From: Patescibacteria group bacterium | Lineage (GTDB): Bacteria > Patescibacteriota > Patescibacteriia > UBA9934 > GWF2-40-263 | Direction of reading: 5' to 3' | Assembly (NCBI GenBank): GCA_038065075.1 | Contig: JBBTRQ010000011.1 | Coordinates: 5,924 to 69,923, forward strand | DNA: 64,000 nucleotides | Shown: one piece after another, positions 11,239 through 26,594 of the stretch | Layout: each line of letters opens with the position of its first letter | How positions within the stretch are numbered: the stretch's first letter is position 1 | Made by a program: the position numbers and the translations under genes | Notes under the pieces: generated by a model | What the model saw: the letters and a program-made list of their open reading frames with translations, nothing else | Databases searched by the model: none | What the model was told of the DNA's origin: nothing

Positions 11239-11693
11239 CGTCGCTGAGATTCCATGAGGGAAACTTCGTGGAATCGATTGCGGCGTTCATCCCGAGCGCT
11301 CAGAGGGAGAAGCCAGATGCCTGCACTCCGAGAAGCACCCCAGAAGCTGAGGCGCGACTCGCGCCCACCTTCCCGCCAGGCGGTCTACTTGATCTACATC
11401 GCCCAGGACCGCGGACTCCTCGCCATGGACTACGGGGGCATCTCCTTCACCCTGCTGGACGAGCTCTACCGCGAGCACATCTACATCTGTGCCCCGGTCT
11501 CGCTTGGAGTCTATTAAGGCGCTTTCAAGCACCCTTCTACGTGCTCACCAACCCTGCTCCGGTCGCATCGAACTTTGGGCGGCTGATACATGCTGGCACA
11601 CGAAAACAGGGGTATCGGGGTTGAGTGTCTTACTGGCAATTTTCGGCTTATGTTCGCCTGTTTCCGGCGAGACAGATATCGTCACCCCTCGAA

Positions 11694-13238
11694 TTATTCG
11701 ACGCCGTATTTAGTATCCGTACCCTTATCAGACACTTTCAAAAAGAGATGGCGGTTAGCACTTACTCGAAACCTCAAATACAGTAGATGGGTCGATGTAC
11801 TGGGATCCGGCCCGCTGATCTCTAAAGTGGGGTGTTCAGCCTGAAGTATTTTTATGACTTCGTCGACTTTCTGACCAACGTCCGACGAGTTGTACAAACG
11901 TGAGTGGACACGCATGGCAAGTTCATTCATCCAGATATCCTCTTCAGAACGAAGCGTCTTTTTCTTTGGCTCAACGACATCCACTGCCTTCTGAAGGACA
12001 AGTATATGTTTTGATGCATCAAAACTATCTGGCGCATTCAGATAATCCTGAGCAGAATCGAGGAACGTTCCACTGAAGTGGAGCACATCTTCATATTCGG
12101 CGATATAAATGTTGTACTCTTCAAGCTTTGCCTTCTGCTCTTTGAGTGACAACTCTTTATCGATTCCTAGATCATCACAGAATGGAGCGAGAATCTCATC
12201 TTTAAATGATTTTTCGTGGCCGGATTTCGGCGCGTCAAAGATGACCCTAGTCTCCTTATCAAAGCTTCGCCACAATTTCCAGAATTGGTATGTCATGTTA
12301 TTTCCACCAGTGCTCACCATAAATACACGACGGCTCCAATCGACCCTATTATCGGTCTTCAGTTTGCCGAAAATAATCTCGTCTGACATTCCTTCAATGA
12401 AAAGTGTAACAGGCGCATAAAGGAACGCGCGCTTGTTTGCATCGAGAAACGGTCCAAGTTTCTCGATCAGAACATCGGCTCCGTTTTCGCTTGCTTGAAT
12501 GATATGTGTATCACGTAGGCGATCCTTCAGATTGAAGTACGAGTAGGTATAGGTATCGGGGTTTCCGACACGAATCATTTCGGGATTATGCGTTGCAAAC
12601 ACGAACTGTTTCCCATAACCTATTTCAGCGTGTATCTCCTCAAGAAGGAATGAAATCATGTCTGGATGGAGATAAAGTTCTGGTTCGTCCACTGCAAGAA
12701 AAAGACACTTTGGGTGGTAAACGTAGGTTAGAAGTAACGACAAACGCCGTAGTCCATCACTTTCGTGTTGAGGTGAATACGATGGGACTTCTTCGTCATT
12801 TTCACGCAGAAACCCCATTACATTTTTCACGCCTCGCTTTTGAAGATTTGGGTAACGACCAAGGTACTTTTGGAGGGCATCACGAATCTTAATTCTGATT
12901 TCTGGATAATCCTCGAGGTGCTGATAGAACGTCTGTCCCGTAACCTCTTCGCTGTCGAGATCCGACTGGCTTGCCGATTTGTCCAAAATTGACTGGCTCT
13001 CCTGATACAGATCGTGTTGTGGCGACGCGGTGATGTACTGTGCAAAATAACCATCACGATTTCGACCGCTATTTGTAATTACTTGCTTCGCCTGTTTGGT
13101 CACGGTTCTAAGAACCAAACTTTTCCCAGAACCATTCGGTCCAAAAAAATAATTGATAGCCTTAAACGTCAGTTTTTTGTCTTGGTGCAAACCATGTGGT
13201 AGGCCGCTCACCTGCGCCTCTTTGAGAAGAAGTTCCAT
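11694..13238 (-). CDS. OLD-family / PARIS(AriAB)-like ABC-type ATPase fused to a Toprim-like nuclease domain (anti-phage defence nuclease)
   Basis: 514 aa. Walker A FGPNGSGKS, Walker B/D-loop LFLAVDEPELYLHPD, H-loop FVFATHNPEMI (AAA_21/ABC-like ATPase). The C-terminal FIEGMSDEIIFGKL...VFMVSTGG...VIFDAP resembles the Toprim E-G...D motifs of OLD nucleases and DUF4435. Confidence 0.6.
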   Translation of the reverse strand: MELLLKEAQVSGLPHGLHQDKKLTFKAINYFFGPNGSGKSLVLRTVTKQAKQVITNSGRNRDGYFAQYITASPQHDLYQESQSILDKSASQSDLDSEEVTGQTFYQHLEDYPEIRIKIRDALQKYLGRYPNLQKRGVKNVMGFLRENDEEVPSYSPQHESDGLRRLSLLLTYVYHPKCLFLAVDEPELYLHPDMISFLLEEIHAEIGYGKQFVFATHNPEMIRVGNPDTYTYSYFNLKDRLRDTHIIQASENGADVLIEKLGPFLDANKRAFLYAPVTLFIEGMSDEIIFGKLKTDNRVDWSRRVFMVSTGGNNMTYQFWKLWRSFDKETRVIFDAPKSGHEKSFKDEILAPFCDDLGIDKELSLKEQKAKLEEYNIYIAEYEDVLHFSGTFLDSAQDYLNAPDSFDASKHILVLQKAVDVVEPKKKTLRSEEDIWMNELAMRVHSRLYNSSDVGQKVDEVIKILQAEHPTLEISGPDPSTSTHLLYLRFRVSANRHLFLKVSDKGTDTKYGVE

Positions 13239-13286
13239 ATCTGTAGTGCAGACTATATCATGCCGTTACAATTCAGAGCTGTAAAC

Positions 13287-13889
13287 TTAGAAAGAATATG
13301 AAATCACTCCACGGACGACGCCTTCGATCCTAAAATCTTTATCGGCAACGAACGGATCGTATTTCTTGTTTTCAGAGATCAGGATGATGGCGTTATCGGA
13401 TTTTTGAATCCGTTTGATTAACGCTTCACCTCGATTTACGCACACGACGATCTCGCCGTTCTGCGCGTCATCTGACTTTTTCACCAGAACGAGATCTTTA
13501 TTATGAATTTTCGGCGTCATCGAATCTCCAGAAGCTCTTACCAGGAATGCACCCCCCGCCGGGAAGCCGAGAATCTTTGTTGAGATCGGGACTTGCTCGA
13601 TAGGGTCGCCGTCGAGGACTGAACCGTTCGGTCCACATTTGGCAAACCCGTAAAGATTCAGGTAGGCCACCTTTGCGTCGCCTGTGCCGGAAACGACCTG
13701 GTAATCCCTAGGGTTAGAAGGATTGCGACGCAGACGCCCCTTTTCTTCGAGCTGACGGATGTGGTGGAGAACTACACTCGGAGAAGAGACTCCGAGCTCC
13801 TCCTGAAGATCACGGATGGAGAGTTGCTCGTGCCGATGCCTTTCCAAGAGAACAAGTAGCTTCGCTTGGGTGGGATGGAGCTCCTGCAT
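13287..13889 (-). CDS. LexA / phage-CI-like repressor (wHTH + S24 peptidase)
   Basis: 200 aa. N-terminal wHTH (LSIRDLQEELGVSSPSVVLHHIRQLEEKGRL). S24 catalytic Ser in ASGDSMTP and Lys in EALIKRI, plus the self-cleavage region. Confidence 0.85.
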   Translation of the reverse strand: MQELHPTQAKLLVLLERHRHEQLSIRDLQEELGVSSPSVVLHHIRQLEEKGRLRRNPSNPRDYQVVSGTGDAKVAYLNLYGFAKCGPNGSVLDGDPIEQVPISTKILGFPAGGAFLVRASGDSMTPKIHNKDLVLVKKSDDAQNGEIVVCVNRGEALIKRIQKSDNAIILISENKKYDPFVADKDFRIEGVVRGVISYSF

Positions 13890-14005
13890 ATGTGGACAAC
13901 TATACGCTGTGGATAACTTTCAGTCAAGAACATCCTTGTATTGTTCTACGATTTGTTCTACTCTCGGAATATGCTCGCCGAAACAGTTGATGGTTCTCGT
14001 CCCGC
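13890..14005. promoter_or_regulatory. Divergent control region between the repressor gene and the + strand module; candidate operator direct repeat TTGTTCTAC x2
   Basis: tattGTTCTACgattTGTTCTACtc at ~13935-13960. CACGTG...CGTGTCACATG quasi-palindrome at ~14023-14048. Confidence 0.3.
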
Positions 14006-14419
14006 ATGCACAGCCGATTAATGGCCACGTGCTTAATTACGTGTCACATGAACGTTGGGACACTCATGCTGGCGCATAACACCAATTCGTCCCATGCATA
14101 TATGGTTCAACCCTATAACGGCCATCATCCCTACACGCAGGTGTGTGTCGGAGGATGGCAATACGCCCTGACCGGCGTGTATTACTGCGGCTACCTCGGA
14201 GCTGACGGACGGCTTCAACCGCTCTACATCGGCCGCGCAATTGGCGACGGCGGAATCCGTGGCCGTCTGCTCGATCATCTCCGAGATGATGTGTGGCCTG
14301 GTGTGACACATTTCGGATTCGCGGTTTGTGCCACTGCGCAAGAAGCTATCACTCATGAAGCGGCGGAGATTCGGCGCTTTCAGCCACGTTTTAACACACA
14401 AGGAAAATCCTATGGCTAA
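14006..14419 (+). CDS. Small GIY-YIG nuclease-domain protein (start uncertain; possibly M33 at 14102)
   Basis: GVYYCGYLGADGRLQPLYIGRAIGDGGIRGRLLDHL...THEAAEIRRFQPRFN fits GIY-(x10)-YIG...R...H...E...N. Its stop overlaps the next start (ATGGCTAA). Confidence 0.5.
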   Translation: MHSRLMATCLITCHMNVGTLMLAHNTNSSHAYMVQPYNGHHPYTQVCVGGWQYALTGVYYCGYLGADGRLQPLYIGRAIGDGGIRGRLLDHLRDDVWPGVTHFGFAVCATAQEAITHEAAEIRRFQPRFNTQGKSYG

Positions 14420-14636
14420 CCAACATGTTCTGAAACGCGAAGACGGCTGGGGTGTACGCCGCGAAAAAGCTTCCCGCGACACCGTCATCGTCCCCACGCA
14501 GAAGGCAGCAGAAAAGATCGCAAAGGAAATCGCCACGAATCAGGGAGGAGATGTCTTTATTCATCGGCAGACGGGCAGCCAATGGCGCGAACGCAACACC
14601 TATGGAAAAATCGACCACAATCCCCCGAGGGGATGA
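14412..14636 (+). CDS. DUF2188-family small protein
   Basis: MANQHVLKREDGWGVRREKASRDTVIVPTQKAAEKIAKEIATNQGGDVFIHRQTGSQWRERNTYGKIDHNPPRG matches the DUF2188 pattern (GW.V.....A......K.eAi..A...A...g.e..IH...G.i....syg.DP.PP.G). AGGAAA Shine-Dalgarno 5 nt upstream of the ATG. Confidence 0.6.
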   Translation: MANQHVLKREDGWGVRREKASRDTVIVPTQKAAEKIAKEIATNQGGDVFIHRQTGSQWRERNTYGKIDHNPPRG

Positions 14637-14994
14637 TGCTTCGACAGGCGTTCAGATTCAGGAATCTGAGACGGAGGTGGCGGTGATCATCACGAACCTC
14701 CACCTCCACACGACCGTGCTGCGCAAGCCCAAGACCTTCGCGGAAGGCGTCCGACGTTCCCTTACAAGCGGGAAGGCCGGCCGCGTTCACCAGTCGGACG
14801 GGTTCGAAATCGCTCCAGACGGACAAACGTTCAAGTTCACGATTCCAATCGAAGGGATGGACAGGGTGGTCGCCGATGCCGCCGCCAAAGGCCAACGCGT
14901 CCGCTTCTACATTCCGAGGGATGGCCTGCCTCTCTACATAGGCAAGGATCTTATCCAGCGCACCGAGGCTCTGAAACGCCAGGACAAGGTGTGA
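14602..14994 (+). CDS. Hypothetical protein (start uncertain; alternative GTG at ~14683 with a GGAGG 6 nt upstream)
   Basis: ORF in the same orientation as its neighbours, ...VIITNLHLHTTVLRKPKTFAEGVRRSLTSGKAGRVHQSDGFEIAPDGQTFKFTIPIEGMDRVVADAAAKGQRVRFYIPRDGLPLYIGKDLIQRTEALKRQDKV. No recognisable domain. Confidence 0.3.
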   Translation: MEKSTTIPRGDDASTGVQIQESETEVAVIITNLHLHTTVLRKPKTFAEGVRRSLTSGKAGRVHQSDGFEIAPDGQTFKFTIPIEGMDRVVADAAAKGQRVRFYIPRDGLPLYIGKDLIQRTEALKRQDKV

Positions 14995-15050
14995 TGTAAT
15001 ACCAGTAGATCGTTCCAACTTCACGTCTACAACGTGGTGTATCACTAATT

Positions 15051-15180
15051 CCGGCTCCGGCCGGTAGGAGGCGCGGTAACGCGCCGAAGAGGCATCGCCT
15101 CGGTCGTGCCCGCTCTGTAGAGCTAGTTCGAAAGTCTATTTGGATTTTTCGTGCTCGCTCTACGGAGCGGGCACTTTTTG
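15051..15180 (+). promoter_or_regulatory. Cluster of four consecutive GC hairpins ending in an 18-bp stem / 33-nt loop hairpin plus T-run (terminator, structured leader, ncRNA or pac/ori candidate)
   Basis: CCGGC-tccg-GCCGG (15051-64). GCGCG-gtaa-CGCGC (15071-84). GAGG-catcg-CCTC. GTGCCCGCTCTGTAGAGC (15106-23) ... GCTCTACGGAGCGGGCAC (15157-74) with one G.U pair, then TTTTT. Confidence 0.45.
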
Positions 15181-15214
15181 TTCCCTCACTAACTTATTCA
15201 TCACATTCAGTCAT

Positions 15215-16597
15215 ATGGCCAAACACAACCTTACTCAACACGACGGCACCAAAATTGCCGTTCAGTACGTCCCGCTCGCTTCCCTGAAGCTCGCGGAATA
15301 CAACCCGCGTCGCCATGACGCGGAGCAAGCCGCCAAGCTCAAGGACGGCATCAAAAAGTTCGGGCTGGTCGACCCGATCATCGTGAACGCGGCTCCCGAA
15401 CGCGAGAACATCATCATCGGTGGTCACTTCCGAGCGGAGATCGCAAAGGAGCTTGGCATGACCGAGGTTCCGGTCGTCTTCGTGAACATACCCGACATTG
15501 GGCGCGAGAAGGAATTGAACCTTCGCCTTAATCGCAACACGGGCGAATTCGACCTGGAACTCCTGGCCGAGTTCGACGAGTCCCTACTCACAGACATCGG
15601 CTTCACAACGAACGAGCTCGACCAAATCTTCGAGGCCGAGGAGACGCCCGAGATGTTCGACCTCAATAAGGAGCTGGCCAAACTCGATATCAAACAGATC
15701 GAGATCCAGAAGGGCGACGTATGGCAACTCGGCGAGAGTCAGCTTATGTGCGGGGATTCAACAGTTGAGGTGGACATGTTCACACTCATGGGTGGCGAAC
15801 GAGCGGACATGTGCTTCACCGATCCTCCATACATCCTCGACTATCTCCATGGGAAGAGAAAGGAGGGTCAAGCTGTCACCGGCTTCGGGGCGAAGCGCAA
15901 TCGCCGCTATCTTGAGACCGATGTTCTGCCGCCCGACTTTACGGAAAAATGGATGGGCAGCGTGGTCAAGGTGGCCGCGTCCAACTTCTCGATCATCGTG
16001 TACGAGAATTGGAAGAATATCCGTACGATCTGGGGCGAGATGGAGAAGTATTGGAAGGTAAAAAACATGATCGTTTGGCATCTCGAGAACCGCCACCAAG
16101 GGTTCTCATCCAAGTACAAATTTTTCAACAAGCACGATATCGCCGTGGTCGGCGCGGGCGGTGACGTGCCGTATAACTTCGATCCCGAAGAGGCACCGCT
16201 CCAGGAGGAATACGAGACAGCGCTTTATGCCATCTCCGGAAAGCCACAATGGGAGCCGTACCAAAAGGGCAAGAAAAACTGTCCGACGGACTTTATCGAG
16301 TTCCGTGCGTCCGATGAGAAGCATTCCGGCCAGGGTGTCATCTTTGGCACCAAGCCGACGGAAATTCTCATCCCGTACATCAAGGTGCTCACGAAACGCA
16401 ATGATATCATCCTTGAACCCTTCGGTGGATCCGGTTCGACGTTGATCGCCGCGACGAAGATGAGTCGCCGATGCCGAATCATGGAAAAGTCGCCGGTGTA
16501 CGCGGAAGTGATTCGCAAGCGTTGGGAAAAACTCACAGGGCAGAAAGCAGTCCGTATTTCGTGCGGCATCTATGGAAAATCCAACCCTACATCCTAA
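15215..16597 (+). CDS. ParB-like nuclease N-terminal domain fused to a DNA (N6-adenine/N4-cytosine) methyltransferase
   Basis: First ATG gives MAKHNLTQHDGTKIAVQYVPLASLKLAEYNPRRHD... (ParB-N/ParB-like nuclease). Motif IV FTDPPY precedes motif I ILEPFGGSGSTLIAA (beta-class amino-MTase order). The track ORF 15140 has an N-terminal extension across the hairpin and is rejected. Confidence 0.8.
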   Translation: MAKHNLTQHDGTKIAVQYVPLASLKLAEYNPRRHDAEQAAKLKDGIKKFGLVDPIIVNAAPERENIIIGGHFRAEIAKELGMTEVPVVFVNIPDIGREKELNLRLNRNTGEFDLELLAEFDESLLTDIGFTTNELDQIFEAEETPEMFDLNKELAKLDIKQIEIQKGDVWQLGESQLMCGDSTVEVDMFTLMGGERADMCFTDPPYILDYLHGKRKEGQAVTGFGAKRNRRYLETDVLPPDFTEKWMGSVVKVAASNFSIIVYENWKNIRTIWGEMEKYWKVKNMIVWHLENRHQGFSSKYKFFNKHDIAVVGAGGDVPYNFDPEEAPLQEEYETALYAISGKPQWEPYQKGKKNCPTDFIEFRASDEKHSGQGVIFGTKPTEILIPYIKVLTKRNDIILEPFGGSGSTLIAATKMSRRCRIMEKSPVYAEVIRKRWEKLTGQKAVRISCGIYGKSNPTS

Positions 16598-17030
16598 CGC
16601 TCGGCGCACACAGGCAAAGCGGGACGCGGAGAAAGTTCGGCTTGTCGAGGCATTTAGGAAAACGCCCATCGTTCAACTCGCTTGCCAGTCGGCCGGTGTC
16701 CAGAGTCGATCGAGCTATTACCGGTGGCGCAAGGAGGATCCCGAATTCGCCAAGGCCTGTGACGACGCGATTGGCGAGGGTGTTGAACTTGTCTCGGATC
16801 TTGCAGAATCCAAACTTATCCAAGCCATCAAGGAGCAGAACTACTCCGCGATTAGTTTCTGGCTGCGCCATCGGCACCCCGCCTACGCTGACAAACTTAA
16901 CATTCAAGCCAAGGTAGAAGTCGATAAGCCATTAACTTCGGAGCAAGAGGCGGTGATCCGTCGCGCCATCGAGCTTGCCAGGCTCCCACCACCTTATGAC
17001 CAATCCAAACCTTCTACCCCTGCCGAATGA
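16572..17030 (+). CDS. Putative phage terminase small subunit (HTH DNA-binding)
   Basis: 152 aa. N-terminal HTH with SRSSYYRWRKEDPEFAKACDDA, typical of TerS. It lies immediately upstream of and overlaps the TerL gene. Confidence 0.55.
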   Translation: MENPTLHPNARRTQAKRDAEKVRLVEAFRKTPIVQLACQSAGVQSRSSYYRWRKEDPEFAKACDDAIGEGVELVSDLAESKLIQAIKEQNYSAISFWLRHRHPAYADKLNIQAKVEVDKPLTSEQEAVIRRAIELARLPPPYDQSKPSTPAE

Positions 17031-18519
17031 GGACCCTGAGACGGTGAGCGACCTCGTGCACCTCATGATTCGCGACCAGCGGATCCGTACCGAGGTGACG
17101 CGCGGAAGCCATATGTGGTTCTTTCTGACCTACCTCGCGGATTATGTCCGCTATCCCTTCGCGCCGTTCCATCGCGAGATGTTCGCCCTATCTGAGGACG
17201 ACACCCTGCCAATGTTGGTACTCATGGCGTTCCGCGGGTCGGCCAAGTCTACAATCTTCACTCTCTCGTATCCGATTTGGGCGATCCTCGGACAACAGAA
17301 AAAGAAGTTCATCGTCATCCTCGGCCAGACGCAGCAACAGGCACGACAGTATCTCGCCAACCTCAAACGTGAGCTGGAGCGCAACGATCTGCTCCGGCGA
17401 GATCTCGGTCCATTCGAGGAGCGCGACGAGGAATGGAGCGCTGGAAGCATCGTCATTCCTAAATACGATGCCCGCATCACCGCCATTTCCTGCGAGCAAG
17501 GCATCCGTGGACTTCGTCACGGTGCATACCGCCCCGACCTCATCATCTGCGACGACCTGGAGAACCTCGACAGCGTGCGGACGCGCGATGGCCGCCAAAA
17601 ACTCTACCAATGGCTCATGGGCGAGGTCATTCCTGCTGGGGACGTGAACACCCGTATCGTAATCGTCGGCAACTGCCTGCACGATGACGGAATCATGATG
17701 CGGCTCCAGCGAGAGATCACGGCTGGCGCAAGGTTGGGCGTGTTCCGATCGTTCCCACTTCTTGATGACGAAGGTATTTGTTTGTGGCCAGGCAAGTTCC
17801 CAGATCCCGAATTGGTCGAGTCATTTAAGCGGTCGGTGGTGGACGAGATCACCTGGCAACGGGAGTACTTATTAAGAATCATCGCTGGGGTCGATACTGT
17901 GATCCATCGCGACTGGATTCAGTATTACGACGAGGCGGAGATGGCAGCGTGCGGAGAGAAGTTCCGCTACGTGGGGATCGGCATCGATTTGGCGATCTCC
18001 GACAAGGATACCGCCGACTACACCGCCATGGTGACGGCACACGTGTACGGACGAATCAAAAAACTTCGAATCTTCATCCAACCGCATCCGACAAATGAGC
18101 GGCTTGGGTTTCCGGATACCTACGAGCGAGTAAAGGCCATGGCAAATCTCCACACAGACAAAGCAAAGCTCAAAATTTTCATCGAAGATGTAGGCTATCA
18201 AGGCGCACTAATTCAGATGCTCGAAAAAGACGGGTACCCGGCCGAGGGCGTGAAACTTCACGGTGCGGATAAGCGATCTCGTCTTGCGCTTACGAGTCAT
18301 CTGATCAAAAACGGGGTAATTCGCTTTCCTCGGATTGGCGCAGAGGAATTGATCGAGCAACTGACCGGCTTCGGCTCGGAACGCCACGATGACCTCGCGG
18401 ATGCATTCTCGAGTTTGATCATCAAAATCAAAGAGCATGACAAACCCGCGCCGTGCATCGGGTTCATCTCGTTCGGATGGGACGGATCGGTGCGAGATAC
18501 GCGGATTGAACTGGACTAA
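16996..18519 (+). CDS. Phage terminase large subunit (ATPase + nuclease)
   Basis: Walker A-like MAFRGSAKST, Walker B LIICDDLEN, and C-terminal RNaseH-like nuclease region (IGIDLAISDKDTADYTAMV...). The track ORF starts at TTG 16975; the first ATG is at 16996. Confidence 0.85.
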   Translation: MTNPNLLPLPNEDPETVSDLVHLMIRDQRIRTEVTRGSHMWFFLTYLADYVRYPFAPFHREMFALSEDDTLPMLVLMAFRGSAKSTIFTLSYPIWAILGQQKKKFIVILGQTQQQARQYLANLKRELERNDLLRRDLGPFEERDEEWSAGSIVIPKYDARITAISCEQGIRGLRHGAYRPDLIICDDLENLDSVRTRDGRQKLYQWLMGEVIPAGDVNTRIVIVGNCLHDDGIMMRLQREITAGARLGVFRSFPLLDDEGICLWPGKFPDPELVESFKRSVVDEITWQREYLLRIIAGVDTVIHRDWIQYYDEAEMAACGEKFRYVGIGIDLAISDKDTADYTAMVTAHVYGRIKKLRIFIQPHPTNERLGFPDTYERVKAMANLHTDKAKLKIFIEDVGYQGALIQMLEKDGYPAEGVKLHGADKRSRLALTSHLIKNGVIRFPRIGAEELIEQLTGFGSERHDDLADAFSSLIIKIKEHDKPAPCIGFISFGWDGSVRDTRIELD

Positions 18520-19508
18520 AATTCGTCTAGATTCAATCCTGGAACCTGATAAAGTTGTTCAATCGCTTTACGCTCCTCGTCTGACAAAAGTTGTACCCCG
18601 CGATTATAAAGAAATTTTACGAATTCATTTACATCCTGGTCATCATGAACCCAATGGATCTGATTATTTTGGATTGCGGCTTGAAGCATCGATCGCAATT
18701 CGTCATCGGTAAATTCTGAAAACTTGCTCAATACAGCAACTGATTTATGTGTAGTCTCAAAATTTCTAGTGTTCGCGAAACCGTCAATAGCGAGGCTTCT
18801 GGCAAGCTCATCGGCCAGTTGAATATTAGGGTACTTATCTCTAAAGAACTGCGATAGGTCAGGATAAAGATATACTTGGGAATTTTTCTTGATTTTCCAT
18901 TCATCTTTCAGGCAATCAAGTATTTCGCCATCGTGTAAAGGTGAGCGGTAATCAGAATCTTTTGAAATGAGATACAAGTCTTCTTTTTGTGGGACGTTGG
19001 CTAAAAGCGAAAGCCAGCAAATCGCGTCTCCGTATGAATTATTTTTTCCTGGCGGGTGTCCGAGGTCCATTCTTCTGACAGCCTTATCGATAATTGTTGC
19101 TGTTTCCAGAACAATTGCCTTAGAGAATATTTCTTCCAAGGTTTTATCAGCTTTTAAACCATCCTGAGCTGCCTCCTCTCTGATGTTCTGTACCGCCTTC
19201 GAGATGAGTTTAGAGAATTCTCTCGCTGCCACGCTCAAAGCAGTGTGGTTTGCGTCGAGCTGAACCAATTGAGGAAATTTCGAGACGGTGTTCCTCAATT
19301 GGAATTCCCGAATGGCATCGGCGATTTTCGTCTCTCTGTTTCGTCGAAATTCAGACCTCGCATGGTCAGGTAAATACAAAACGATACCGCGTTGATCAAG
19401 TGCTGTGACGAGTTTTTTTAATGCCTCAAGATCGTCATCGGTATAATGATAAAAAGAGAGGTATATGTTTGTATCAATGAAGACGTGTAATGCCACAAGA
19501 AATTTCAC
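18516..19508 (-). CDS. PIN-like domain protein (DUF4935-like), last gene of the type I R-M operon
   Basis: N-terminal VFIDTNIYLSFYHYTDDDLEALKKL (PIN-type acidic motif). GTG start at 19508 directly abuts the hsdS stop codon (19509-19511). 330 aa. Confidence 0.55.
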   Translation of the reverse strand: MKFLVALHVFIDTNIYLSFYHYTDDDLEALKKLVTALDQRGIVLYLPDHARSEFRRNRETKIADAIREFQLRNTVSKFPQLVQLDANHTALSVAAREFSKLISKAVQNIREEAAQDGLKADKTLEEIFSKAIVLETATIIDKAVRRMDLGHPPGKNNSYGDAICWLSLLANVPQKEDLYLISKDSDYRSPLHDGEILDCLKDEWKIKKNSQVYLYPDLSQFFRDKYPNIQLADELARSLAIDGFANTRNFETTHKSVAVLSKFSEFTDDELRSMLQAAIQNNQIHWVHDDQDVNEFVKFLYNRGVQLLSDEERKAIEQLYQVPGLNLDEF

Positions 19509-20693
19509 CTATAAAAGCTGTGCGGTCAAAGCTGAAAATGCTTCGTCGATCAATTGTCCACGATGCAGTTGTTTTCCTCGGATTTTTGCCGAATTTTCTA
19601 CAAGCTCAACAAATTCAACCTGCTTATCTTTTGGAGGCACCAAAATATCCAAACCCGTCAGTGCATCGGTGTTAAGACTCTGAACAGTCGCTCCGGTTTT
19701 GATCAGTGTTAACAGATGTCTTTCTAAACCACGCAATTGCCAATACAGAAAAATCGGATTGATCTCTGCCGAAGGGATCAGAGCTTTGATATCTTGGTTA
19801 ATCGCCACTGGTCTAGCTGTGATCGCGATCGGTACCGTATGCTTCAAGATTCCACTGCGAGTAACCACCAATAATGAATTGGGAGGTATCAGATTTGTAG
19901 CTGATTCCGCAATTGCTTCTTGAGTTATGTGATCCTCAGTATCCTCAATAAACTCATCCCCCATGTCCTTCGGGGAGACCCATGGAATCACTCCGTTCCA
20001 AAATTTTCCCATTTGTTTCGAAGGTGTACCCCCACCCTTAACGGTTACCACGTCGCTCAATTTTTTTGTCAAAAAGTTTTGGTCAATTGAGTTACCAAAC
20101 ATTTGGTCAAACAATGCAGGAGCGAAGTCAGACAAAATTTTGTATGCGCTATCACGTTTTGTTTTCAATTCCAGTACCTGATCCAAAGTCGACACAATTT
20201 GCTTCTGTGTCTTCAAAGGAGGAACGGGAATTAACAACTTTCCGTAACGCCGTGTCTCTAGATTTCTAATTCCTGACGTCTGTCTCTGAAGGGAGTTGGT
20301 AACGCCTTTCATATACAGATTCTGGAGGCAGTGCCAGAGGAATCGCGGATCAATCATCCCTGCGTCTTTTACTCGAATCCGAGCAGTAAAGTTACTATAG
20401 GTATACCCAGGTTTGTCCAATTGAAAGAGCGCAACTCGACCCACAGGTTGTTTGGGCCCACCACCAGATTTTTCTAAAATAATATCACCGGGCTTTAGCT
20501 CCCTTGTAGAAAACTGTCGATCTTCAACGAGATGCTCTGCCACATCATCAAAATCCAAATGACCACCCGCTTTAAAATTTGTATTACGGATAATTCTCGC
20601 CTGACGCATCGTTCCTGATTTACCAATCCAAAGACCACCCGTTATGTCACATAGTTCATCCAGATTTTTTTCGATATACGGTGAACCATGCAT
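19509..20693 (-). CDS. hsdS: Type I restriction-modification specificity subunit HsdS
   Basis: 394 aa with two target-recognition domains and central/C-terminal conserved helices. ATG at 20693 lies 1 nt after the hsdM stop. Confidence 0.85.
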   Translation of the reverse strand: MHGSPYIEKNLDELCDITGGLWIGKSGTMRQARIIRNTNFKAGGHLDFDDVAEHLVEDRQFSTRELKPGDIILEKSGGGPKQPVGRVALFQLDKPGYTYSNFTARIRVKDAGMIDPRFLWHCLQNLYMKGVTNSLQRQTSGIRNLETRRYGKLLIPVPPLKTQKQIVSTLDQVLELKTKRDSAYKILSDFAPALFDQMFGNSIDQNFLTKKLSDVVTVKGGGTPSKQMGKFWNGVIPWVSPKDMGDEFIEDTEDHITQEAIAESATNLIPPNSLLVVTRSGILKHTVPIAITARPVAINQDIKALIPSAEINPIFLYWQLRGLERHLLTLIKTGATVQSLNTDALTGLDILVPPKDKQVEFVELVENSAKIRGKQLHRGQLIDEAFSALTAQLL

Positions 20694-20694
20694 A

Positions 20695-22170
20695 TCAAAC
20701 CTGTTTTAGGAGATTCTCGACTTCCGATACGATTTCCTTCTCAAGCTTAACGACCTCTCGCAAAATTTCCTTTGGATCACGGTGATCGATGGCTGTTGTT
20801 TCTATGGTTCGATAGCGACCAATAGCCAAACTTAAATCAGAATCCTTTTTAATGGTTTCTGCACTGATCAGGAAACTATTTACACTGGATTTGCGTTCCG
20901 GCCATGCCGCAAGCACATCCGGAATATTGTTTTTATTGATGGGTTGTCGTCGATCATCTAAGGTGTAACCATCGGCTTTGAGGTCGTAAAACCAAACGTC
21001 CTGTGTCGCACCACCCTTCTTGAAAATCAAAACACCCGTTGCGACACCGGAGTATGGCTTGAACACTCCTGGTGGCAAATTAATCACAGCCTGAAGTTCG
21101 CAAGTGTCGAGCAAAAGTTCGCGAATTTTTCTGGCAGCACGGTTTGTTGCAAAAAGCACACCATTCGGAACAATCACAGCTGCCCGACCGCCGCCCGTAA
21201 GGTGGTCAATAAACCACTTACAAAACAAGAGCTCTGTGCTAGTGGTGAGCAAGTTGATGTCTGCAAGGATGCTTTCTTGCTGGATTGATCCAGCGAAAGG
21301 AGGATTCGCAAGAATCACATCGTAGCGGTCGCTATAGTGACGAGGATCAGTGAGCGGGTTATAAAAAAGGATTCGTGCCTTCTCAAGCTGGTGCAGGTAA
21401 AGGTTCATGATTGCGACTTTCACCATGTTCGCGTCGTTGTCGAAGCCGGTGAACGCCTGCTCCTCGAGGAATTTCCATTGGGCAGTTGATAGCTCATCAC
21501 CTGTGTTTTGACCCTTGGTCTGCGAGCCTTTTGAGGTATGCGTACGCTTGATGTGATCGAAAGCGGCAATCAAAAATCCACCCGTACCACAAGCTGGATC
21601 ACAGATGCGTTCACCCGGCTGAGGGGCTACCATTTCCACCATCATCGCGATGATGTGTCGCGCTGTGCGGAACTGACCGGCGTTACCCTGCATTGAAAGG
21701 TTGCTGAGCAGGTACTCATATGCGTCTCCCTTGATATCGATTCCTTGAAGCGGCTTGAGTTCCATCGAATGAATCGTCTGGATGACGGCACGGAGCGTTG
21801 GGCGATCGTAGATTTTTAGGGTCGCGCGTGCGAACAGAAGTTTTCCTGTCTCGGATAGGTTCGGAAGCTCGTGGATATTCTCAATCGCGGCGCGGGCGGC
21901 ATCAAAAAGGGCGTCACCGGTTAGGGTGACGAAATTGCCCCAGCCGTACTTCGACCACTCGCCTGAAAAAATCGGCTTGTAGTTCTTGTCGAGACGAGCA
22001 AGTTGCTCGTCTCGTTCGGAAAGGATTCGCAAGAACAACAGATAAGAAATCTGCTCGATCGCATCAATCGGATTATTGACCCCTCCTGAGTAAAGTGAGT
22101 CCATCAGCTGGTCGATCTTTGACTTGAGATCGGAGGAAGTAAAAAGCTCTTGGGAACGCATTGATACCAT
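20695..22170 (-). CDS. hsdM: Type I R-M N6-adenine DNA methyltransferase HsdM
   Basis: NPPFAGS motif IV, motif I DPACGTGGFLIAA, HsdM N-terminal domain. Confidence 0.9.
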   Translation of the reverse strand: MVSMRSQELFTSSDLKSKIDQLMDSLYSGGVNNPIDAIEQISYLLFLRILSERDEQLARLDKNYKPIFSGEWSKYGWGNFVTLTGDALFDAARAAIENIHELPNLSETGKLLFARATLKIYDRPTLRAVIQTIHSMELKPLQGIDIKGDAYEYLLSNLSMQGNAGQFRTARHIIAMMVEMVAPQPGERICDPACGTGGFLIAAFDHIKRTHTSKGSQTKGQNTGDELSTAQWKFLEEQAFTGFDNDANMVKVAIMNLYLHQLEKARILFYNPLTDPRHYSDRYDVILANPPFAGSIQQESILADINLLTTSTELLFCKWFIDHLTGGGRAAVIVPNGVLFATNRAARKIRELLLDTCELQAVINLPPGVFKPYSGVATGVLIFKKGGATQDVWFYDLKADGYTLDDRRQPINKNNIPDVLAAWPERKSSVNSFLISAETIKKDSDLSLAIGRYRTIETTAIDHRDPKEILREVVKLEKEIVSEVENLLKQV

Positions 22171-22176
22171 AGAATT

Positions 22177-24579
22177 TTAAAGCTCAGCCAGATCCGCTTG
22201 GCGAACGATTGGGGTAAGACGCAGGGCATCGAATACTTCATCACGTTCGTTGAATGCGAGCAGACCTTCAAGTCCGCCGAGGGCGTTGAATTGACTGGTG
22301 TTAAAAATGGTCATGTCCTTTGCGAAGAAGCGTCGGCGAGCATCCTTATCTTCCACCAACATCTTCACAATAGCGTCCACCCAGCGCTGATCGTTAAACC
22401 GCAGATTGAACTGCGATGCGATAGTTTCGACAGTATCCTCGACAATCCGCGCCTTCGTTGGGATCGGCTTTTTCCCAAGGGGACCGTAGACGAAGGTCGG
22501 CACCGGGGCTGGGATACCGTAAGCCTGTACAAGTTTGCCAGGGGTGTAGAACATTTTCGGTCGGTTGAAAAACCGTTCCCCCATAATGGTTTCAATAGCG
22601 TCATCGTCCTCGTCATCAACTGCGTTTTTGAATTCTCCATCCTTTTTGTATAGATCCTTTATGTCTTTTTCGTATGAGCCGCGGAATGTCATAACATCGA
22701 CCTTTTCGCCGTCGGGTCCGACGATTTTAATCTCGGTGGTTTGGACAATATCGGTGCCAGTCCAGACAGGAATCTCTGGCTTGAGATGGCCTCCAGCCGC
22801 CGGTTCAGCTACAGTTACACCTTCTCCAGTAGGCAGAGCCTCGGACTTGGAGCCTTTCTTTCCTTTTGCAGGTTTTACCTCTCGCGGTACCACCAGCGGA
22901 ACGGTATAGTCATATTTTTCTTGGAAATACTCGGCTACGCCGCAAAAATCCAAAATCAGGAAATTTTCCTTCTTGTATGCCGTGTTGCCAACTTTAAACG
23001 TATGAAGACGCGTCCCGCGTCCTTTGATCTGGATGTACTCAGTCGGGGAAAAGATCGGGCGAGCAAGGACGATATTGAGAATGTCCGTGCAGTTATACCC
23101 AGTCGAAAGCATGTCGACGGAAACAGCAACGCGCTCATTGCGTTTCCCATCACGGAAATCTTTTGCGATTGCCGCTGCATCTTGGATGCGGGAAGTGATG
23201 GTGAGTGCAACCTCGGGCTGGATGGCGTTCAGCATCTTTGTCAGAGTCGTTGCATGGGTTTGGTTCACAGCAAAAATAATGGTTCTGCCGATTTGACCAT
23301 CGGGAGCACGAAGCGCATTTTTGAAAAACTGCTCGCAGATAATTTTGTTACGCTCGGGAGTGAAGATTTTCCGCTCAAGATCGCGAATCTTGTAGCTCTC
23401 TTCCTGCTCGTTGACCGTGACAGTCCATCCGCCTTCCTCGAGCGCCTTGGTAGTGATTTCAGAACGGATATCCCAAATTTTAGGCAGGCAAAGGAATGGA
23501 CCCTCGGGATCCTTTACCGCATCGACGATGTCATATCGGAACGTCGGCAACCCAGGCTTACAGCCGAAATAGTGATACGTGTCCCGTAGTTGGCGAGCTT
23601 CAAGAGCTTTGGGATTCTCCTCCTCAAGTTGAGTGAGATCGACATTTTTTAAATATGCCTTCGGGGTTGCCGTTAGACCAACACGTGTGGCCTGGAAATA
23701 CTGAAGGACTTCACGCGCGTCACCGTAGATAGAACGATGCGCTTCATCGTTAACCACAAGGTCAAAGTGATACGGTGTAAATGCCTCACGGTAACGCCTA
23801 TCAACTAAAAGCGACTGAATGGTGGCGATCACAACGCTCGAAGCCATGAGCTCAGCAGGCTTGTGACGTGCAGTTTTAAAAATGACCGGCTTGTAATCGC
23901 GCAGGATAAATTCGAATGTCTCCAGCGTTTGCTTGGCAAGCTCAATTCGGTCAACGACAAAAAGCACGCGCTCGGCGTTACGTGTCATGAGGAAACGCCG
24001 GATCATCGCAGCACACATAAGTGTTTTCCCAGTACCCGTCGCCATTTCCAAAAGGAATTTCCTTCGGCCGGATTCATCGAACTGTTTGGCAACTTCGTCG
24101 AGTGCACGAATTTGGTAGCCGCGAACCTTAAGTGCCGGATCGATACCAGCAAGCGAATTTGGAGTGAGTCTTTCAGTAAGCAACGGTCTTGGTGGTTGAA
24201 GGTTTTTTAATTTCAACCGTTCAAGATCGGCTCGGGATGGAAGTGATTCGATGCGATATGCATCTTCCTGATTCTTGCGCGTGAAATTCCAAAAATAATG
24301 AACCGTCCCATTTGAGAGGATGACAAATGGCGCTTTTAAATTATCGGCATACCCACGCGCCTGATCCTTTGCATCGTATGGATCAAGATCTTCGCGCTTC
24401 GCTTCAAGGATGCAAAGCGGAAAGCCGCGATCATCTTTCAGAATGTAGTCAGAGCGCCCGGTCGTTGAGGAAACTTCCAATGTGACCTGTTGCGTATCGA
24501 GCAGATTCCAGCCGCTCCCTTCAAGTGCCTTATCGATTAAGATGCGGGAAAAAGCTTCGGGTTGTCCTTTTGCGACCAT
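22177..24579 (-). CDS. hsdR: Type I restriction endonuclease subunit HsdR
   Basis: 800 aa. N-terminal PD-(D/E)xK nuclease (DYILKDDRGFPLCILEAKRE), helicase motif I EMATGTGKT, motif II VVNDEAHR, motif VI QIKGRGTR. Confidence 0.9.
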   Translation of the reverse strand: MVAKGQPEAFSRILIDKALEGSGWNLLDTQQVTLEVSSTTGRSDYILKDDRGFPLCILEAKREDLDPYDAKDQARGYADNLKAPFVILSNGTVHYFWNFTRKNQEDAYRIESLPSRADLERLKLKNLQPPRPLLTERLTPNSLAGIDPALKVRGYQIRALDEVAKQFDESGRRKFLLEMATGTGKTLMCAAMIRRFLMTRNAERVLFVVDRIELAKQTLETFEFILRDYKPVIFKTARHKPAELMASSVVIATIQSLLVDRRYREAFTPYHFDLVVNDEAHRSIYGDAREVLQYFQATRVGLTATPKAYLKNVDLTQLEEENPKALEARQLRDTYHYFGCKPGLPTFRYDIVDAVKDPEGPFLCLPKIWDIRSEITTKALEEGGWTVTVNEQEESYKIRDLERKIFTPERNKIICEQFFKNALRAPDGQIGRTIIFAVNQTHATTLTKMLNAIQPEVALTITSRIQDAAAIAKDFRDGKRNERVAVSVDMLSTGYNCTDILNIVLARPIFSPTEYIQIKGRGTRLHTFKVGNTAYKKENFLILDFCGVAEYFQEKYDYTVPLVVPREVKPAKGKKGSKSEALPTGEGVTVAEPAAGGHLKPEIPVWTGTDIVQTTEIKIVGPDGEKVDVMTFRGSYEKDIKDLYKKDGEFKNAVDDEDDDAIETIMGERFFNRPKMFYTPGKLVQAYGIPAPVPTFVYGPLGKKPIPTKARIVEDTVETIASQFNLRFNDQRWVDAIVKMLVEDKDARRRFFAKDMTIFNTSQFNALGGLEGLLAFNERDEVFDALRLTPIVRQADLAEL

Positions 24580-24668
24580 ATGTCCGAATTATGCCTGAAA
24601 AGAGCCTTATCTGCAATGAGTTTTTGTCCCTTTTGTTACCTACAAGTAGGGCTAGGCACCCAGGACAG

Positions 24669-24694
24669 ATGTGGCATTAATGTCCATGCCACAT
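24669..24694. promoter_or_regulatory. Perfect 9-bp inverted repeat ATGTGGCAT-n8-ATGCCACAT, 12 nt upstream of the recombinase start (candidate operator / recombinase-binding site)
   Basis: Read directly from the sequence. It lies in the divergent region between hsdR (-) and the recombinase (+). Confidence 0.4.
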
Positions 24695-24705
24695 AACGGC
24701 CATTT

Positions 24706-26037
24706 ATGAACAATCCAGCCCAACAAGCAGTACCAGTGCCACAGCCGATCCGCTACTGCCTTTACTCACGCAAGAGCACCGAGCAAGACGAGCAACAATC
24801 CCTCTCGATTGAATCCCAAGTGAAAGAAATGCTCGCGGCGGCGGAGCGGGACGGGCTTTTGGTAACGGAGATCCGGCGCGAGAGTCACTCGGCTAAGGCG
24901 TCTGGCCAGCGACCCGAGTTTAACCGGCTCATCGATGATATACGCCTTCAACGGTTTGACGGCATCCTTGCCTGGGCGCCAGACCGCTTGAGCCGTAACG
25001 CGGGAGACCTGGGAACCATCGTGGACTTAATGGATCAAGGTGTTATCCGCGAAATTCGCACCAATGGATCCCGGTTCACGAATTCGCCGAGCGATAAGTT
25101 CATGCTCATGATGCTCTGCAGCCAGGCCAAGCTAGAAAACGATAACAAGAGCATCAACATCAAGCGCGGGCTCAAGGCGAAAGTCGAAATGGGCTATCGG
25201 CCTAACATGGCTCCGATGGGGTACTTGCATGACAAGAATGCTGACAAGGGTACGAAGCGGATTTACATCGATCCCGAACGCGCGCCGGGCATCCGTGAGA
25301 TGTTTGAAAAAGTCGGATATCGATTCTGGTCAGGGCGACAGGTTAAACGATGGCTTGATAACGATGCAATGTTCAGGTCACGAACGGGTAGAAAGGTTGC
25401 GTTGAGTAGTATCTACATGATGCTTTCAAATCCATTTTACACCGGCCGATACGAATTCCCGATGAAGAGCGGGAAGTGGTACAAGGGCAAGCATGACGCG
25501 ATCATCTCACAAGAGCTATTCGATCGGGTGCAGGAGAACCTCAGTGTGATCCCCAAAGGTACACATGGATCAAAGGAGTTCTCGTTCACCAGATTGTTCT
25601 CCTGTGGCGCGTGCGGAGCCGGCATTACGGCCGAGGAGAAGGTGAAGCGGCTCAAGGACGGTACGGTCAAACGGTATGTGTACTATCATTGCACAAAACA
25701 GGTCGATAGGAATTGCCGTGAGTCGTTCCTGCGTGAGGAGTCTCTCATCGAGCAGCTGCTGAAGATCGTCGATAAGCTTAGCATCGATGAACTTGGGATG
25801 GCCGAGATCGTAAAAGCAGAGATGGAAAAATTTCAACGGCTCCTTGTGGTCGTGTCCAAGCTGGATTCGAACCAGCAAAACATCATGGTTCTTCCGAAAC
25901 TGGACGTACGAGCCTGCGCGAAACTGATCCTTCAGGACGGATCAAAAGAAGACAAGCGGAAACTGCTCGAGCAACTCAAGAGCCGCATCATCCTGAAGGG
26001 GGGCAAGCTGAGTATAGAAAAGAAGAGAAAAACCTAA
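24706..26037 (+). CDS. Large serine recombinase (resolvase-like catalytic domain + recombinase domain + Zn-ribbon)
   Basis: N-terminal YCLYSRKSTEQDEQQSLSIESQ (catalytic Ser). Recombinase domain. C-terminal CGACGAGI...YYHCTK zinc ribbon and coiled-coil. 443 aa. Confidence 0.9.
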   Translation: MNNPAQQAVPVPQPIRYCLYSRKSTEQDEQQSLSIESQVKEMLAAAERDGLLVTEIRRESHSAKASGQRPEFNRLIDDIRLQRFDGILAWAPDRLSRNAGDLGTIVDLMDQGVIREIRTNGSRFTNSPSDKFMLMMLCSQAKLENDNKSINIKRGLKAKVEMGYRPNMAPMGYLHDKNADKGTKRIYIDPERAPGIREMFEKVGYRFWSGRQVKRWLDNDAMFRSRTGRKVALSSIYMMLSNPFYTGRYEFPMKSGKWYKGKHDAIISQELFDRVQENLSVIPKGTHGSKEFSFTRLFSCGACGAGITAEEKVKRLKDGTVKRYVYYHCTKQVDRNCRESFLREESLIEQLLKIVDKLSIDELGMAEIVKAEMEKFQRLLVVVSKLDSNQQNIMVLPKLDVRACAKLILQDGSKEDKRKLLEQLKSRIILKGGKLSIEKKRKT

Positions 26038-26051
26038 GGGTCGCCAAATCG

Positions 26052-26086
26052 AAAACCCGCATTCCATGAGGAGTACGGGTTTTCTT
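26052..26086 (+). terminator. Rho-independent terminator after the recombinase gene; its loop contains the right copy of the 11-bp repeat
   Basis: AAAACCCG-cATTCCATGAGGagta-CGGGTTTT-CTT. Confidence 0.6.
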
Positions 26087-26531
26087 GGTCACCCCCTGTT
26101 CCGGTCGCCAGGAACAGGTCGTGATGGTTCTGGAGCAAGAGATTCGAACCGAATCTCGACCATCTGTCACAGATCGTCGGTCTCCTGCAGGCAGCCTTGC
26201 TGGACCTCGACCAGGCGCTCGCGCCGTTTCGGATCCGCATCGCGCGTGTCGAGGCGCGTCGGGACCACGTCCCGCTGTGGAACTTCAGCGGTCAGTTGAC
26301 CCAGCTGGTCGTCGAGGGCTTCCACAACGGCCACTACTTCCACACCTTCCCCGGCGGGAGGATCGACGACAACCTCGCAGAGATGGAGATGGCGGAGTTC
26401 AACCGCCTGGTCATCCACTGCGAGGCCGTCAGGTAGCCTTCCGTCCGCTCAACGCGCTCTAGCCACCCGGCTGGAGCTTTTCATTTTGGCTAAATTTAGC
26501 CCATAGATGCCCACTCAGTGGGTTTCACCGA

Positions 26532-26560
26532 TTGACAAAAGCGCTATTTTCTGGTATCTT
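26532..26560 (+). promoter_or_regulatory. Candidate sigma70-type promoter for the 26595 gene
   Basis: TTGACA - 17 nt - TATCTT, ~35 nt upstream of the ATG. Confidence 0.3.
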
Positions 26561-26594
26561 TTTACGTTAAATTAGCAAAAACTATTTAATCTCT

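Follow-up and report, generated by a model that had tools for sequence, protein, structure and literature searches.

A rare Patescibacteria clade of compact OLD-family ATPase–Toprim proteins with an altered Toprim site, and a member encoded next to a LexA-like repressor

The window analysed here, a stretch of 64,000 nucleotides from contig JBBTRQ010000011.1 of a Patescibacteria group bacterium (assembly GCA_038065075.1, positions 5,924 to 69,923), encodes on its minus strand an OLD-family protein in which an ABC-type ATPase is joined to a Toprim domain. The gene, its motifs and its domains are located as follows, in positions of the window.

11694..13238, minus strand: OLD-family gene, ATG start, 514 amino acids plus stop
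13119-13142, minus strand: Walker A motif GPNGSGKS, residues 33-40, from translation
12660-12689, minus strand: DEPELYLHPD, residues 184-193, from translation
12582-12596, minus strand: ATHNP, residues 215-219, from translation
12378-12395, minus strand: EGMSDE, residues 282-287, from translation
12228-12236, minus strand: degenerate DxD motif, D335-A336-P337, from translation and profile alignment
12444..13238, minus strand: ABC-type ATPase domain, residues 1-265
12054..12443, minus strand: Toprim domain, residues 266-395
11697..12053, minus strand: C-terminal domain specific to the family, residues 396-514, with helices and then a four-stranded sheet

An earlier sequence-only reading had described an open reading frame (ORF) at 11694-13238 without giving its strand; the frame is real and lies on the minus strand, and translating the corresponding sub-ranges reproduced every motif quoted there. 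It is a gene under selection, far beyond what chance would produce, since same-length homologues exist at 41-87% identity, the ratio of nonsynonymous to synonymous substitution rates (dN/dS) is low and Pfam families are matched. An NCBI protein of identical sequence, MEK7619938.1 ('AAA family ATPase'), comes from a metagenome-assembled genome of the Patescibacteria group. GC content over the gene is 0.44, compared with ~0.53-0.57 in its flanks.

All catalytic motifs of the ATPase domain are intact, namely the Walker A lysine K39, the Q-loop Q67, a signature-like S160-x-G162, the Walker B pair D184-E185, the D-loop H191 and the H-loop H217. K39, D184-E185, H191 and H217 do not vary within the family or among 153 aligned relatives, and the two histidines are those typical of the D-loop and H-loop of OLD proteins. 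Sequence alignment places the ATPase motifs on residues 273-310 of the Thermus scotoductus OLD (Ts OLD). Walker B falls 92 residues earlier than in Ts OLD, and the ATPase together with its helical insert is therefore compact; in an AlphaFold2 model built from the family alignment (mean predicted local distance difference test score, pLDDT, 84.7) this insert spans approximately residues 75-143, is modelled at pLDDT 40-86, is ~90 amino acids shorter than in Ts OLD and may correspond to the helical dimerisation domain that OLD ATPases carry as an insertion. The model shows alternating strand-helix units over residues 277-379, forming a Toprim fold. The C-terminal domain, modelled alone (pLDDT 81.8), matched no solved structure (best E 0.15).

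Profile and fold comparisons agree on the family. Pfam AAA_21 (66 bits) and AAA_15 (36 bits) both exceed their gathering thresholds, and OLD-like_TOPRIM (PF20469) scores 22.3 bits on residues 274-335 of this protein against a gathering threshold of 23.2, with all 19 of the 19 aligned family members matching at E <= 0.01 (best 3.4e-7) and intermediate relatives reaching 40-54 bits. The PADLOC Old model aligns to residues 180-336, from Walker B into the Toprim domain, and the PADLOC GajA and ATPase-Toprim_I-B models match partially. The sole significant sequence match in the PDB is Ts OLD (6P74, Class 1), at E 2e-4 when the protein alone is the query and 2.5e-10 when the family profile is used. 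The top Foldseek matches of the model in the PDB are all full-length OLD proteins, comprising the retron-Eco8 effector (9lp9_B, 6e-9), Ts OLD (6p74, 3e-8) and GajA (8sm3_A, 5.5e-8), and generic ABC ATPases rank below them. By sequence and predicted fold, the protein is thus a member of the OLD family.

The OLD-like ATPase–Toprim architecture proposed by the sequence-only reading is borne out by these Pfam, 6P74 profile and full-length Foldseek matches. That reading had pointed to RecF or SbcC as the best matches, with no Toprim fold, as the outcome that would speak against it; this does not apply, because the best matches are OLD proteins and the Toprim fold is present. Its likeness to class-1 OLD nucleases also stands: the gene is Class-1-like by context, because it has no helicase, reverse transcriptase or conserved partner gene. 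A Class 2 GajB-type UvrD/PcrA/Rep helicase is absent downstream of the OLD gene, the element that carries the gene contains no reverse transcriptase or non-coding RNA (ncRNA), and the Rfam matches are tRNAs only. We therefore describe an OLD protein by homology and Class 1 by context, which departs from the canonical form in failing the DxD motif and in adding an unmatched C-terminal domain.

A second likeness suggested at first, to a fused PARIS (AriA-AriB, Class 4) system, did not survive closer comparison. The top PADLOC model for this protein is indeed AriA (7e-19), and AriAB scores 2e-12, but the AriA match covers only residues 72-222, with a model of 304 positions that is the same length as Pfam AAA_21, and the AriAB match only residues 180-289, so that both are limited to the ATPase and linker. 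The Toprim domain matches OLD-like_TOPRIM rather than the AriB-type DUF4435, for which Pfam gave no match at E <= 1, and PDB AriA aligns only over the stretch from Walker B to the H-loop (residues 179-221) at E 0.002, compared with 2.5e-10 for Ts OLD. Because the AriA and AriAB matches fall within the ATPase common to both families, we rejected a fused PARIS system, which we regard as extremely improbable.

Within the Toprim domain, E282-G283, D286-E287, R303-R304, G311-G312, D335 and D384 are invariant in the family. Profile alignment equates E282, D286 and D335 with E377, D381 (a metal B residue) and D431 of Ts OLD, whose catalytic residues have described roles (PMC7049728), and all three positions, chosen beforehand by this homology, are invariant. 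The earlier observation of a single aspartate where DxD is expected is confirmed for the whole clade in family and profile alignments, with P337 standing opposite Ts D433, the second aspartate of the motif. When 1.84 billion representative proteins were searched exhaustively and the top matches aligned, DxD was present in 126 of 153 OLD-like proteins; the 27 exceptions are 24 members of this clade (DxP in 19, DxV in three, DxI in one and DxT in one) and its three nearest short relatives, P0029 (DSN), P0030 (DAN) and P0053 (DAG). The clade also lacks the GGK lysine kept by most relatives. E287, which extends the motif to EGxxDE, and R303-R304 are fixed in this clade only.

A further invariant residue, D384, lies just past strand 4 and is followed seven positions later by a lysine in most members; in this protein and its closest relative that position is a threonine (T391). 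The spacing from D384 to the lysine equals that of E480/R487 in Ts OLD and E543/K550 in P2 Old, and the lysine may correspond to Ts R487 and P2 K550. We keep this metal-B/Arg mapping at the level of a suggestion because no sequence alignment reaches that part of the solved OLDs; the alignment of a canonical relative to 6P74 stops at the DxD motif. No clear equivalents of Ts S478 and R487 were found in this protein.

Compared with the 87% identical homologue, dN/dS is 0.064 over the whole gene, 0.039 in the ATPase, 0.044 in the Toprim domain and 0.20 in the C-terminal domain. Since the Toprim value is as low as that of the ATPase, the Toprim domain does not appear to be decaying. We infer that its site has been remodelled and is not dead, with E282, D286 and D335 kept and the second aspartate and GGK lysine lost, and we propose E287, R303-R304 and D384 as candidate replacements.

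The same losses also fit another explanation, in which an OLD-derived protein has an impaired Toprim that persists as a structural or binding module while the ATPase and C-terminal domain act by DNA binding or clamping, sequestration or effector recruitment. The second DxD aspartate and the GGK lysine are missing clade-wide, T391 replaces the family lysine that is spaced like Ts R487, and every metal-A substitution in P2 Old singly abolished function, including D455A at the equivalent aspartate, which alone abolished in vivo activity (PMC7049728). Moreover, the anti-phage phenotypes of Escherichia coli YbjD/OldB need the ATPase, and the Toprim is dispensable (PMC13261556). However, the invariance of E282, D286, D335, E287 and D384 over 41-87% identity is hard to square with a dead site, as is a Toprim dN/dS of 0.044, and triple metal-A mutants of Ts OLD retain DNA nicking, so that losing one ligand need not abolish catalysis. 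On balance we consider an impaired Toprim unlikely, though the most serious of the alternatives.

The clade to which the protein belongs is rare and restricted to Patescibacteria. Among 5.8 billion protein clusters searched, 23 same-length clade homologues with 41-87% identity were found, and the named members all come from Candidatus Levybacteria. Compared with canonical OLDs, the clade has an ATPase shorter by ~90 amino acids, an altered Toprim site and an unmatched C-terminal domain. In the 50%-identity library the clade is represented by two full-length clusters, and at E <= 1e-30 only eight representatives were found among 1.84 billion, among them the two full-length clade members, three clade fragments, and P0029 and P0030. 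These last two are the next relatives (1e-42), followed by a large set of OLD-like proteins of ~600-640 amino acids. Outside the clade, the nearest proteins are this larger set (e.g. P0032-P0041) together with P0029, P0030 and P0053 (507-553 amino acids), at E 1e-42 to 1e-20; they have the compact ATPase of the clade and are colinear with it through the Toprim domain. The relatives of ~620 amino acids keep DxD and mostly the G-K motif, have a longer C-terminal region and lack the invariant E287 and R303-R304 of the clade, whereas P0029, P0030 and P0053 resemble the clade in lacking the second aspartate. Searches of GTDB genomes yielded distant matches only; in metagenome contigs, two partial clade loci (L016 and L017) were recovered alongside distant relatives.

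Upstream of the OLD gene lies a repressor gene with its own promoter-like region, the features of which are listed here.

13239..13286, minus strand: spacer of 48 nucleotides between the repressor and OLD genes
13287..13889, minus strand: LexA/CI-like S24 repressor, 200 amino acids
13632-13637, minus strand: putative cleavage site of the repressor, Cys85-Gly86
13899..13927, minus strand: best promoter-like site in the region, TTGACT-17-TATAGT, 10 of 12 consensus positions
13927..13947: candidate operator of the repressor, a perfect palindrome AGAACA-N9-TGTTCT adjoining the -35 hexamer

The distance and shared direction of the two genes are as first noted, with a gap of 48 nucleotides (13239-13286) between two minus-strand frames. 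The repressor, deposited as MEK7619939.1 ('S24 family peptidase'), exceeds the gathering thresholds of PF01726 (the winged-helix LexA_DNA_bind domain) and PF00717. In an alignment with E. coli LexA, C85-G86 of the repressor pairs with A84-G85, S123 with S119 and K159 with K156. A Cys-Gly scissile bond is that used by UmuD. We term the protein LexA-like and not LexA because it scores 105 bits with the LexA equivalog model TIGR00498, below the cut-off of 111; it also matches phrog_4, 'transcriptional repressor', at 1e-26.

Nine nucleotides (13898-13890) separate the -10 hexamer from the repressor ATG, and the predicted transcript is therefore near-leaderless. A scan for the palindrome allowing up to two mismatches gave 10 matches where 2.8 were expected; we treat the additional matches as noise because all except the perfect one sit in unrelated coding sequence. 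The spacer contains no terminator-like site and just a weak promoter-like match (TTTACA-17-CATGAT, 9 of 12 positions), which makes it plausible that the repressor and OLD genes are co-transcribed from the near-leaderless promoter. An operator within the spacer was considered and is not claimed, as a weak TTACA-N9-TGTAA resemblance to the palindrome there was not significant. Repeats are dense in the regulatory interval 13890-13965, which separates the repressor from the divergent operon: two copies of TGTGGAYAACT (13891 and 13908) flank the -10 hexamer, and the direct repeat TTGTTCTAC occurs twice, at 13941 and 13953. The consensus scan found no plus-strand promoter for that operon.

To place this arrangement in context, the window and ten further independent family loci were compared. 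In three of these 11 loci, with differing orientations, the OLD gene has a LexA-like gene no more than 1 kb away. The two genes are co-directional in the window; in L089-L091 they belong to an apparent operon in the order LexA-like gene, 112-amino-acid ORF, 68-amino-acid ORF and OLD gene; and in L001 the repressor is divergent and the OLD gene stands behind a DUF2188 gene, which there adjoins both the LexA-like and the OLD genes. The 112- and 68-amino-acid ORFs match no family and occur in no other family locus. Neighbours in the other eight loci include type III-like and type ISP restriction-modification (R-M) genes, AbiTii, HEPN, a ParB-like ORF and helix-turn-helix excisionase-like genes. 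R-M or abortive-infection (Abi) genes adjoin the OLD gene in at least eight of the 11 loci, and a serine recombinase lies within 8 kb of it in five.

The locus of the 87% identical homologue, L088, delimits the shared unit closely. Its DNA similarity to the window is 83% and runs from position 1482 to 3033 of L088 against 13240 to 11689 of the window, that is, from 2 nucleotides before the start codon to 5 past the stop, with unrelated flanks on both sides. In L088 the sequence before the OLD gene appears to encode the C-terminal portion of a Res-like protein of type III restriction, and the ORF after it is SWIM-zinc-finger-like. An all-against-all tblastx comparison of 2.5 kb upstream and downstream in the 11 loci revealed no conserved partner gene; the flank similarities found were the LexA-like and DUF2188 genes in three loci and, downstream, a match of ~100 nucleotides between L007 and L008 only. 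With a LexA-like neighbour in just 3 of 11 loci and the ORF alone shared with the 87% homologue, the OLD gene is a self-contained cassette of a single ORF. It has a tendency to insert into regions concerned with defence and immunity. A conserved LexA-OLD two-gene module was considered on the same loci and set aside, given the small number of loci, the varying orientation and the sharing of the ORF only.

The suggestion of an SOS- or repressor-linked nuclease module consequently holds in part. The neighbour is a LexA/CI-like protein of phage type with the features of self-cleavage, and co-transcription is plausible; as a shared module, however, the pair is contradicted by the 3/11 adjacency and by a similarity to L088 that ends within 5 nucleotides of the ORF. 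In its strong form this would be a true two-component, SOS-coupled module in which the LexA-like repressor specifically controls the nuclease, as an antitoxin-like partner or a damage switch. LexA-like genes within 1 kb of OLD in three diverged loci, a Cys-Gly site and Ser/Lys dyad that align to E. coli LexA, and a palindromic candidate operator at the repressor promoter are all consistent with it. However, eight of the 11 loci have no LexA-like neighbour, the 87% homologue has unrelated neighbours, and the repressors of the three positive loci are only weakly related to each other, in addition to their varying orientation. The repressor also matches generic phage repressors (phrog_4) and faces a ParB-methylase/terminase operon, as expected for the immunity repressor of the element itself. 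We consequently regard a dedicated two-component module as improbable.

Both genes belong to a larger element.

~11250..26100: phage-derived integrative element of ~15 kb, boundaries approximate

Its gene order is OLD, repressor, DUF2188, ParB-methylase, TerS, TerL, PIN_12, type I R-M and large serine recombinase, with the OLD gene forming one end, on the repressor side. The OLD and repressor genes, PIN_12 and hsdS/M/R are on the minus strand, and a divergent plus-strand set comprises a 137-amino-acid ORF, DUF2188, a ParB-N6/N4 methylase, TerS and TerL. TerL matches phrog_38 (4e-76) and the recombinase matches the integrase family phrog_95 (1e-65). Since no portal, capsid or tail genes were found in it, the element is best described as a cryptic prophage or as satellite-like, and it is loaded with defence cargo in the form of OLD, PIN_12 and type I R-M. 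Locus L009 carries a related element, with a recombinase 48%, a ParB-methylase 60% and a TerL 45% identical; the order of the core genes differs and its OLD gene lies elsewhere.

Several details of the element and its surroundings were recorded in addition. The PIN_12 gene stands directly upstream of complete hsdS, hsdM and hsdR genes (18516-24579, minus strand), and GC content over 18-21 kb is low (0.43-0.46). The 137-amino-acid ORF (14006-14419, plus strand) matches no family, contains a 'YIGRA...R..L..H' stretch that recalls GIY-YIG nucleases, and overlaps the start of the DUF2188 ORF (14328-14636, plus strand) as mechanically called. The host genes before the element end with UvrA (6673-9549) and a 554-amino-acid ORF matching no family. 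Downstream of the OLD stop there is a gap of 455 bp, followed by an unrelated gene for a secreted-type protein; the GC-rich gap (11239-11693) showed no convincing ORF, tRNA or Rfam match and may be an attachment junction of the element or a gene remnant. A search for attachment sites at both island ends (11239-11693 and 26038-26600) found no split gene, tRNA or ncRNA. Further out, in unrelated host context, a 524-amino-acid ORF (4930-6504) has a weak match to type IV secretion system pilins (TrbC/VirB2-like) and adjoins a DsbA-like thioredoxin.

In the window and in L009 the OLD gene adjoins genes for terminase and ParB-methylase, which could reflect a mobile-element or host function other than defence. 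Examples would be the processing of element DNA while it is excised or packaged, or a part in the cell cycle or in repair as for Cran1, an archaeal OLD which, according to a citation in PMC13261556, has been reported as essential for cell-cycle progression. However, the gene is extremely sporadic, as the eight representatives found at E <= 1e-30 illustrate, it occurs beside R-M or Abi genes in loci that have no terminase genes, and its position varies within related elements. We consider such a function very unlikely.

Taken together, we favour with some confidence the view that the gene encodes an autonomous single-gene OLD nuclease (Class-1-like) for anti-phage defence or abortive infection, and that a serine-recombinase element carries it as cargo at its repressor end. 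According to this proposal, OLD would be transcribed with the LexA/CI-like repressor from the promoter at 13927-13899 and would thus be made in the lysogenic or quiescent state, by analogy with rexAB and lambda cI and with old in P2 lysogens. A dimer of the ABC ATPase could then sense an infection-linked nucleic-acid cue, which for characterised OLDs is aberrant or replicating phage DNA structures. The ATPase would license the Toprim domain to cut DNA, as nicks in the manner of the Vibrio cholerae OLD (Vc OLD), or tRNA in the manner of P2 Old, and cleavage would stop phage replication or kill the cell.

Besides the Toprim losses set out above, several observations weigh against this nuclease proposal. 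The case for co-transcription is built from consensus scans, a Toprim-only family profile reached no solved OLD structure by sequence, and no close homologue of the OLD gene was found in GenBank phages or IMG/VR. In addition, one public ENA assembly (a 99.6-kb contig) contains the same gene with a frameshift just before Walker B (12690-12700 region), which splits it into ORFs of 199 and 317 amino acids (proteins P0175 and P0002), which reflects either an error in assembly or an allele that has been inactivated naturally in the population.

Comparison with known systems shows how far the analogies reach. The layout recalls lambda cI-rexA-rexB, in which defence genes lie directly downstream of, and co-directional with, an S24 self-cleaving repressor expressed from a near-leaderless maintenance promoter. 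This is an analogy of layout and not homology, as the effectors are unrelated, and the layout is not conserved across the OLD clade. Ts OLD (6P74, Class 1) is alike in the Walker A lysine, the Walker B acidic pair, the D-loop and H-loop histidines (H191 as Ts H283, H217 as Ts H310) and the three Toprim residues E377, D381 and D431, and differs in that D433 is replaced by proline here, the GGK lysine is absent, the ATPase is shorter and a C-terminal domain of ~120 amino acids with no fold match is added; overall identity in fold alignments is ~13%.

P2 Old is a prophage-borne single-gene OLD that is expressed in the lysogen and excludes other phages (PMC10568477, PMC12445682, bioRxiv 10.64898/2026.07.10.737580). 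It is built alike, of an ATPase sensor and a Toprim effector, and is unlike this protein in having the canonical E398, D453 and D455, each essential; tblastn in the phage collection detected no similarity between the two. P2 Old is a nuclease of the tRNA anticodon arm, triggered by RecBCD inhibition or phage-origin hairpins, in which destabilisation of a tetramer precedes tRNA cleavage (bioRxiv 10.64898/2026.07.10.737580; PMC12445682). Vc OLD (Class 1) is a DNA nickase that needs its ATPase and nuclease residues and, like the gene described here, is a stand-alone OLD on a mobile element, where it alone suffices for defence (PMC12392090); unlike it, Vc OLD has canonical active-site residues and belongs to another clade and another host phylum. 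GajA (Class 2) and the retron-Eco8 effector (Class 3) have the same fold and are the top Foldseek matches, but they are larger, with a Toprim insert or helical domain, and need the GajB helicase or a reverse transcriptase and ncRNA, none of which lies within this element.

The present evidence does not indicate a new defence principle. Far more tentatively, and as a doubtful proposal, the Toprim centre may have been rebuilt, with a single aspartate, an Asp-Glu pair and an Arg-Arg pair replacing DxD and GGK and implying a different metal stoichiometry or substrate, and in some lineages the gene may have been joined to an SOS-cleavable repressor circuit. If so, nuclease dosage in those lineages would switch with induction of the carrier element, and these ultra-small, episymbiotic bacteria would possess a form of OLD immunity coupled to damage or induction. 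Class 1 (stand-alone) OLD nucleases are uncommon; the three or four that have been studied differ in their triggers, their substrates (DNA nicks or tRNA cleavage) and the role of the Toprim domain. The clade described here extends the OLD family to the Patescibacteria (candidate phyla radiation), in which phage defence is poorly known, and shows OLD genes moving as single-ORF cassettes, both among R-M islands and among small integrative elements that bear terminase genes. It also provides a natural experiment on the Toprim site, in which DxD has been lost under purifying selection as strong as that on the ATPase.

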